Shown one piece after another: positions 2,245 to 2,577 of a DNA stretch of 64,000 nucleotides. Under the pieces are notes generated by a model. It worked only from the letters and a program-made list of their open reading frames with translations. It had not been told where the DNA came from and ran no database searches. Position 1 is the first letter of the stretch. Every line of letters starts with the position of its first letter. The stretch comes from a phage: NCBI GenBank assembly GCA_014435945.1, contig GCA_014435945.1_4088.1. One strand, given 5' to 3'. The translations under genes and the position numbers were made by a program.

Positions 2245-2577
2245 ATGCTAGATTTAGTTATCCAAGGTAATGTTGATATTACTCCAGCAATCAATTACGC
2301 GATTCATGCAGAAGCAAATGCACTAACGAAGTTTAGTGATTCTTCAGTACTTTATATCGGTGTTCATGTGAAGAAAGAGCATAAGTCTCAATACTCTGTG
2401 ACTCTAACATCAGGTAGTAAATCAGTTACTGCCGATGCAGCAGATTTATACAAGGCGATTGCTGATTCATTTGAAAAAATGGAAACTGTATTCAGTAAAG
2501 ACAAAAGCATTAAATTGCACCGCCGAAACCATCCAGAACATCCAGTTCAAGAAGACTTGACTGACAACGAAGAGTAA
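2245..2577 (+). CDS. hpf: ribosome hibernation promoting factor (HPF/RaiA family) homolog
   Basis: 110 aa; aligns by eye along its length with E. coli HPF (LVIQGNVDITPAI vs LNITGNNVEITEAL; DLYKAIAD vs DMYAAIDG). Confidence 0.55.
   Translation: MLDLVIQGNVDITPAINYAIHAEANALTKFSDSSVLYIGVHVKKEHKSQYSVTLTSGSKSVTADAADLYKAIADSFEKMETVFSKDKSIKLHRRNHPEHPVQEDLTDNEE

Follow-up and report, generated by a model that had tools for sequence, protein, structure and literature searches.

The window, i.e., the whole stretch of 64,000 nucleotides of phage DNA that was analysed (GenBank assembly GCA_014435945.1, contig GCA_014435945.1_4088.1), carries at positions 2245-2577 of its plus strand an ATG-started open reading frame (ORF) of 110 codons. 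The encoded 110-aa protein is annotated here as belonging to the HPF/RaiA (Ribosomal_S30AE) family on the basis of profile and PDB searches, an AlphaFold2 model, Foldseek comparisons and dN/dS values. A Shine-Dalgarno-like AAGGTAGG at 2231-2238 (plus strand) is located 6 nt 5' of the ATG, where it overlaps the stop codon that ends the preceding HNH ORF, and is identical in the orthologous loci of the phages 121Q, WPEC3 and JNE01. Upstream and on the same strand, the LysM-lysozyme gene at 624-1550 (with a TTG start according to the annotation of relatives) represents the conserved partner of the HPF gene, and an HNH homing-endonuclease ORF at 1600-2232 (PHROG 953, E 4e-68) is situated between the two. 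At the 3' end, a near-consensus sigma-70 promoter (TTGACT-17-TATAAT, 2557-2585, plus strand) lies within the last HPF codons. It is followed by an intrinsic terminator (2586-2623, plus strand), which consists of a 12-bp hairpin at 2586-2613 with 5 GC pairs and the T-run TCTTTTT, in agreement with the strong terminator reported for this site by the earlier note. Just past the HPF gene, two slightly overlapping ORFs of 137 and 140 aa (2801-3214 and 3201-3623) form a tandem duplicate pair, both matching PHROG 20693, a family with no assigned function (E 4e-60 and 4e-53). Farther downstream, genes for a CCA-adding tRNA nucleotidyltransferase (3759-4874), a Nudix protein (4981-5394) and a glutaredoxin (5384-5632) are found, together with a weak macro-domain match at 6214-6690 (20.4 bits, below the cut-off of 22). 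Another weak match, to 2H-phosphoesterases, is placed at the very start of the window (46-456; 23.8 bits, below the cut-off of 27). Searches of the whole window for tRNA genes and for Rfam families at gathering score returned none. The surrounding DNA matches 45 jumbo-phage records (from E. coli, Klebsiella, Salmonella and Pectobacterium), with Escherichia phage WPEC3 being the best DNA match at 95.5% identity, and this supports the earlier statement that the gene is phage-encoded. Judged by these similarities and by the taxonomy of the matches, which is Asteriusvirus, the window is Asteriusvirus-like jumbo-phage DNA of the 121Q/PBECO4 group.

The earlier note had described the 110-aa ORF as a homologue of the HPF/RaiA ribosome hibernation factors and had named a profile search for the S30AE family as a check. 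This search returned a match, and the assignment is further borne out by the predicted fold. With hmmscan, the protein scores 35.1 bits (E 2.3e-8) against the Pfam model PF02482 (Ribosomal_S30AE), whose curated gathering score is 23.7 bits. As the match spans residues 8-87 of 110 (model positions 5-84 of 88), the description of an alignment along the whole length was slightly generous: it holds for the core, whereas the last ~20 residues are outside the Pfam model and share only length and charge with the RaiA tail. The nearest relatives in the protein collection (P0001-P0009, 68-90% identity) all carry a precomputed PF02482 assignment. The generic HPF/YfiA model of NCBIfam (TIGR00741) gave 28.8 bits, under its equivalog cut-off of 40.9, and the E. 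coli-type HPF model (NF007780) gave 20 bits, far under its cut-off of 125; a RaiA-specific NCBIfam model was not matched. Furthermore, a sequence search of the PDB yielded 12 matches with E <1, every one of HPF/pY/RaiA type. The AlphaFold2 model, built on ten phage sequences and with a mean pLDDT of 81, features the element order β1-α1-β2-β3-β4-α2 (strands at residues 2-8, 36-46, 49-56 and 59-65, helices at 14-30 and 68-94). It comprises a core β-α-β-β-β-α domain of residues ~2-94 and an acidic tail (~95-110) which is predicted to be disordered. Foldseek against the PDB placed only HPF/RaiA/pY chains at ranks 1-35 (query-normalised TM 0.43-0.74), many of them solved on ribosomes. Helix α2 opens with the hallmark motif D-[LM]-Y-x-A-I, here in the form D67-L-Y-K-A-I72, which is invariant across the phage clade. 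The C-terminal dimerisation domain of the long Firmicutes-type HPF (~180-190 aa) is absent, with Pfam recognizing the N-terminal S30AE domain only. Taken as a whole, the phage gene is almost certainly a genuine member of the HPF/RaiA superfamily.

Within this superfamily, the products of E. coli K-12 raiA and hpf served as references. HPF (YhbH) is the best cellular pairwise match, with 28% identity over 89 residues (E 8e-7), while RaiA (YfiA, protein Y) shares 23% core identity with the phage protein (E 6e-4). The phage protein of 110 aa is closer in length to RaiA (113 aa) than to HPF (95 aa). Its R93-R94 align with R95-R96 of RaiA past helix α2, and its last 12 residues carry a net charge of -5 as in RaiA, in contrast to +3 at the HPF terminus. 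The isoelectric points of the phage protein and RaiA are likewise similar (5.6 and 6.2). Where the short HPF ends with a basic terminus at residue 95, the phage protein adds a conserved acidic extension of 15 residues. Still, the two tails are not homologous in detail (DLTDNEE in the phage protein, FVEEVEEE in RaiA), and the likeness is an architectural one. Judged by these traits, the phage protein looks more like RaiA than like HPF in its architecture. Since the core is slightly nearer to HPF, this RaiA-like character derives from the tail alone, and with regard to the subfamily, core and tail point in different directions.

In ribosome complexes, HPF/RaiA proteins block the tRNA and mRNA sites and prevent initiation. 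The Arg-Arg pair of the Klebsiella quasipneumoniae YfiA contacts 16S rRNA and uS7, and the YfiA tail is disordered and heads toward the RMF site (bioRxiv 10.1101/2025.10.07.680626). Contact residues were taken from these cryo-EM structures of Gram-negative HPF/YfiA complexes and mapped onto the phage protein via alignments (bioRxiv 10.1101/2025.10.07.680626). The E. coli contacts K80, K87 and K89 are kept as K78, K85 and K87, Q29/K29 is kept as K29, the aromatic Y/W30 is kept as F30, and T53 is conservatively replaced by S51. Lost are R83 (T81 in the phage protein), K91 (I89, with K90 adjacent), K26 (A26) as well as R17 and K23 of helix α1 (N17 and E23). The loss of R83 concerns the residue described as the single essential arginine contacting m4C1402 in E. 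coli (bioRxiv 10.1101/2025.10.07.680626). At this column, most Asteriusvirus copies, Hallingskeid and Munch have Thr, JNE01 has Val, EJP2 has Lys, Cronobacter phage GAP32 and the profile match P0013 have Ser, and P0014 has Glu. About half of the aligned cellular homologues also lack Arg here (the alignment being read by eye), and the loss of R83 is therefore notable and not disqualifying.

The HPF protein was found by tblastn in 38 of 50,697 phage records, so that the earlier characterization of a phage copy as uncommon is fair, and at least 35 records carry the gene with an uninterrupted reading frame. The window protein is identical to no database entry, the best matches reaching ~92% identity in the phage collection and 90% in the protein collection. 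Pairwise dN/dS ratios among the Asteriusvirus copies range from 0.17 to 0.32 and thus indicate purifying selection; on this comparison of orthologues, the gene is regarded as real and selectively maintained rather than as a chance ORF. The idea of a chance ORF or a decaying pseudogene without function is effectively refuted: besides the intact frames and the dN/dS values, the conserved Shine-Dalgarno site and terminator and the detection of an orthologue as a protein speak against it, and only the truncated versions in some Salmonella phages could be cited in its favour. These versions, internally deleted or 5'-truncated, occur in the phages SD-15_S21, SD-1_S14, SD-2_S15 and SD-6_S16 (310-326 kb; matches H59, H60, H62, H63 and P0010), and in the deleted copy of 74 aa the core residues ~22-57 are missing. 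Their existence among relatives implies that, in some settings at least, phages can do without the HPF gene.

A word-indexed homologue search gave 10 relatives, all from phages, and no cellular homologues. When 1.84 billion representatives were searched exhaustively with a profile, 36 matches were obtained. Only three of them lie below 1e-10, namely the Asteriusvirus cluster, a truncated copy from a Salmonella phage and a repeat protein regarded as spurious. The matches P0011 and P0020 were rejected as homologues, being long tandem-repeat proteins in which weak matches add up. Likewise, P0015 was rejected as the GAP32 protein, and the GAP32 locus was then read directly. The next profile matches (P0012-P0016, excluding P0015) are proteins of 103-107 aa from other jumbo phages. 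One of them, P0012, is ~73% identical to the copies in the Salmonella phages Munch, 7t3 and SE_PL and in Klebsiella phage fENko-Kae01, and these Munch-type copies are about 30-35% identical to the window protein. As the gene order is conserved and GAP32 shares the fold at ~18-30% identity, the sequence comparisons argue that the HPF gene is a single old, vertically inherited gene of Rak2-like jumbo phages without a close cellular donor.

The order in question is common to 121Q, WPEC3, JNE01, EJP2, the Erwinia phage Hallingskeid, Munch and GAP32, and runs from LysM-lysozyme over an optional HNH gene, the HPF homologue, the terminator and small ORFs to the CCA-adding tRNA nucleotidyltransferase. 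In those loci which extend far enough, genes for Nudix, glutaredoxin and macro-domain proteins come next (121Q, Munch and GAP32, and partly WPEC3). According to their domain matches, the neighbours of the HPF gene are of the RNA/translation-maintenance or repair type. The HNH ORF is the variable element of this arrangement. It is absent in 121Q and WPEC3, where the lysozyme-HPF gap measures 15-16 nt, and an HNH gene occupies the same site in Munch and in GAP32 (here as two split ORFs). The HNH protein of the window is 99.5% identical to the same-site copy in JNE01, whereas the adjacent HPF of JNE01 is only 73% identical, which suggests that the HNH ORF has spread laterally in recent time.

The lysozyme-HPF unit is preceded by a promoter-like site at 480-507 and a leader of ~110 nt (480-623 in total, plus strand). 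Since only 15-16 nt separate the lysozyme and HPF genes in most relatives, HPF probably stands at the end of a lysozyme-(HNH)-HPF unit driven from this site. In the window, a further promoter-like site at 2114-2141 (plus strand), inside the inserted HNH gene, may add to HPF transcription. The HPF protein is probably made from sigma-70-type promoters of the host RNA polymerase. The leader (508-623) also contains an invariant element of ~30 nt (537-566; TGTAGAAAGTCC-N5-7-GGCTTT(G)TGCA), which is identical in 121Q, JNE01, EJP2, Hallingskeid, Munch and GAP32 despite highly diverged flanking proteins. It occurs once in the window, and in IMG/VR it was found in 5 contigs only (four of 348-371 kb and one 31-kb fragment), always ~100 nt 5' of the lysozyme gene. 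Based on base-pairing potential, the element could fold into a hairpin of 10 bp that includes G.U pairs, and a second helix of the leader could sequester the Shine-Dalgarno site of the lysozyme gene. Such a sequestration would resemble the translational control of the T4 gene e. The leader hairpin exhibits no covariation, its sequence being invariant, the predicted stability of the leader RNA does not exceed that of shuffled sequence (z -0.41), and Rfam gave chance-level matches only for the lysozyme leader.

At the other end of the unit, a hairpin with a T-run 3' of the HPF gene is kept in 7 of 7 orthologous loci examined with differing stems (GGGACAG in Asteriusvirus, GGAAGCC in EJP2, GGGCAGCC in Hallingskeid and GGACA(T/C)TC in Munch). 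As the hairpin persists while the stem sequences differ, the terminator is a conserved feature and not a chance palindrome, and it is predicted to end the HPF transcription unit at 2586-2623. The embedded promoter shows a similar persistence: each of the seven orthologues examined has both hexamers and the 17-nt spacing, even where protein identity drops to ~30%. The codons for Leu and Thr in the tail motif DLT(D/E), always TTG-AC(A/T), supply its -35 hexamer, and the TATAAT-like hexamer follows exactly 17 nt later, just past the HPF stop codon. In GAP32, the promoter is located 3' of the stop codon and outside the coding sequence. The motif D-L-T-(E/D) itself is kept from Asteriusvirus to Munch; as its 'DLT' codons double as the -35 hexamer, part of the apparent protein conservation of the tail is a conservation of DNA. 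Nevertheless, the acidic end appears to be constrained at the protein level too, because it is kept in GAP32 (STEDNEE at the C-terminus), where the promoter is outside the coding sequence, and because its acidic residues are encoded by different codons in different phages. Presumably, the embedded promoter drives the downstream genes. The terminator hairpin starts one base past the -10 box, and the predicted start of transcription (~7 nt downstream, at ~2592) falls within the 5' arm of the terminator. A transcript from ~2592 would lack most of this arm and should read through, whereas transcripts derived from upstream should terminate.

Over the entire window, 12 sites with at least 11 of 12 matches to the sigma-70 consensus were counted on the plus strand (at 2114, 2557, 3141, 5314, 20151, 20737, 20829, 25249, 46795, 49894, 50129 and 62882), where 1.6 were expected from shuffled sequences (100 shuffles, maximum 5). 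Four of the 12 fall within 2.1-5.4 kb, and the minus strand of the window has no site at this threshold. The minus strand holds large ORFs at 26-44, 47-50 and 52-64 kb, including a single ORF of 3333 aa (52517-62518) and others of 1906 aa (29300-35020) and 1638 aa (35170-40086). These three may belong to a virion module.

For the function of the protein, the earlier note had offered the hypothesis that a phage copy could silence or protect host ribosomes. The reading favoured here, with a probability of roughly 0.5, is a RaiA-type parking in which the protein binds the decoding site of vacant ribosomes and protects them. Lodged as a monomer in the tRNA/mRNA channel, it would fill the A and P sites of vacant 30S or 70S ribosomes, with the centre of the β-sheet and the basic second half of helix α2 forming the binding surface and the disordered acidic C-terminal tail running toward the RMF site. 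Ribosomes would in this way be parked as protected 70S monomers, which would neither be dimerised by the host RMF/HPF system nor attacked at the decoding centre. Judged by the neighbouring genes for a CCA-adding enzyme, Nudix, glutaredoxin and macro-domain proteins, the pay-off considered most likely would be that the pool of ribosomes is preserved in slow-growing hosts or while a long jumbo-phage infection lasts. The retained equivalents of K80, K87 and K89, the Arg-Arg pair, the acidic tail and the D-[LM]-Y-x-A-I hallmark are in line with such a parking. Against it stand the loss of R83, K26, K91, R17 and K23, the scores under the NCBIfam equivalog cut-offs and the behavior of the HPF of phage rV5. 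The latter, a member of a different clade, was expressed, yet after a wash in high salt neither the 70S nor the 100S fraction was found to contain it (Mizuno et al., 2019; PMC6375957). A further reading, viewed as rather improbable, is that of a functionally diverged HPF/RaiA clade with a phage-specific activity. It would build on the lost m4C1402-contacting arginine, the invariant β2-β3 patch 'VHVKKEHK' and the conserved acidic tail. Candidate activities would be a shielding of the decoding centre from nucleases or toxins of host abortive-infection systems, an exclusion of RMF by which dormant ribosomes stay available, or a delivery with the virion allowing the protein to act immediately on infection.

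A blockage of the decoding site could also serve the silencing of host translation, with the protein keeping free host ribosomes from initiating at an early stage of infection and phage messages escaping otherwise, e.g., by means of the IF3 homologue of related genomes. The inhibition of initiation through occupied tRNA and mRNA sites is known for HPF/RaiA proteins, the gene is surrounded by many sigma-70-type promoters, presumably early ones, and the related phage Sharanji encodes translation factors, among them an IF3 homologue (PMC11895373). Nevertheless, host shut-off seems unlikely, since a blocker of the A and P sites is blind to the origin of a message and would slow down phage protein synthesis too. 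A determinant of selectivity is not visible, and the truncated copies in relatives speak against a central role in the take-over of the host. With an A/P-site blocker being unable to discriminate messages and the neighbouring genes being of the maintenance or repair type, a protection of the ribosome pool is preferred, and shut-off is the less likely purpose. The opposite effect on hibernation was suggested by Mizuno et al. (2019), who proposed that a viral HPF might rival host factors and keep ribosomes from dimerising (PMC6375957). Applied to the jumbo-phage protein, a binder weakened by the loss of R83 would displace the host HPF or exclude RMF via its tail. Hence, 100S dimers would be dissolved or prevented in stationary-phase hosts, and the protein would easily be removed by initiation factors, so that dormant ribosomes would be woken to serve the phage. 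The RaiA-like tail pointing to the RMF site would suit this competition, and the missing m4C1402-contacting arginine together with several lost basic residues of helix α1 could lower the affinity. Such a change in affinity is, however, guessed from sequence alone, RaiA itself inactivates ribosomes and does not wake them, and 100S levels remained unchanged in the case of the rV5 HPF (PMC6375957); an anti-hibernation role is thus given a low probability.

It is similarly doubtful whether the protein has kept the fold and lost ribosome binding in favour of another RNA or protein partner, bound through the conserved 'VHVKKEHK' patch and the conserved tail, or has become a virion-associated cargo. 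The negative rV5 result keeps the idea of a new partner alive, since that HPF was not found on ribosomes (PMC6375957). In addition, ribosome-contact residues were lost, and the clade is isolated, as only three profile matches fall below 1e-10, one of them spurious, with the next ones coming from other jumbo phages. Moreover, the distant orthologue of fENko-Kae01 was detected with 6 peptides by mass spectrometry of purified phage preparations (PMC11218385). The same preparations also contained many metabolic enzymes, including thymidine kinase, RNA ligase and Nudix (PMC11218385), so that the detection attests expression and not packaging, and carry-over from the lysate is likely. Most contact positions of helix α2 and the β-sheet as well as the RaiA-type Arg-Arg pair are kept, and an alternative partner is not indicated. 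The protective parking of ribosomes remains the preferred reading. If the protein indeed protects or re-mobilises ribosomes, this would bear on the infection of slow-growing or dormant cells by jumbo phages. The control of host ribosomes by phages is an active topic. The present clade has long been retained in jumbo phages of E. coli, Salmonella, Klebsiella, Cronobacter and Erwinia, i.e., in hosts which are genetically tractable.

The identification of the HPF gene is correct and was already known from annotation and literature. RefSeq names the orthologues of 121Q and PBECO4 'HPF/RaiA family ribosome-associated protein', Mizuno et al. (2019) include Cronobacter phage GAP32 and rV5-like phages among the carriers of HPF homologues (PMC6375957), and the genome paper of Sharanji counts the orthologue, which is 79% identical to the window protein, among the translation-related genes (PMC11895373). 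These precedents mean that the finding as such is not new. A literature search for functional work on phage HPF returned nothing beyond Mizuno et al. (2019). Added here are the conserved module, which is shared across Rak2-like jumbo phages and consists of the leader, LysM-lysozyme, the optional HNH, HPF and the promoter/terminator, as well as the RaiA-like architecture, the loss of R83 and the promoter within the last codons.

Among the known systems, gp533 of 121Q (YP_009102120.1) is the direct orthologue, with 110 aa and 80% identity to the window protein. Orthologues are also annotated in PBECO4, Sharanji, slurp01, phAPEC6 and Turkey3, and together with that of 121Q they are 79-92% identical across the group. 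The phages of the 121Q/PBECO4 group feature the same position behind the LysM-lysozyme gene, the terminator and the embedded promoter; the window differs from most of them by the HNH endonuclease upstream of the HPF gene. More distant is the positional orthologue gp183 of Cronobacter phage GAP32 (AFC21633 / YP_006987288), a protein of 111 aa with an acidic C-terminus. Its locus comprises lysozyme, HNH and the S30EA protein, followed by the CCA-adding enzyme, Nudix, glutaredoxin and macro genes. Although gp183, at ~18-30% identity, is barely detectable by BLASTP with the window protein, its fold matches with a TM of 0.80. The promoter, which is inside the coding sequence in the window, follows the stop codon in GAP32. 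The rV5-like HPF of large E. coli myoviruses (ABI79209, 105 aa) is likewise a phage-encoded protein of the S30AE family. Nevertheless, it represents a separate clade, which tblastn with the window protein did not pick up at E <1e-3 and which reportedly clusters with gammaproteobacterial sequences, implying a recent acquisition (Mizuno et al., 2019; PMC6375957). Among phage HPF proteins, that of rV5 alone has been put to an experimental test, and it belongs to a different clade from the jumbo-phage protein.
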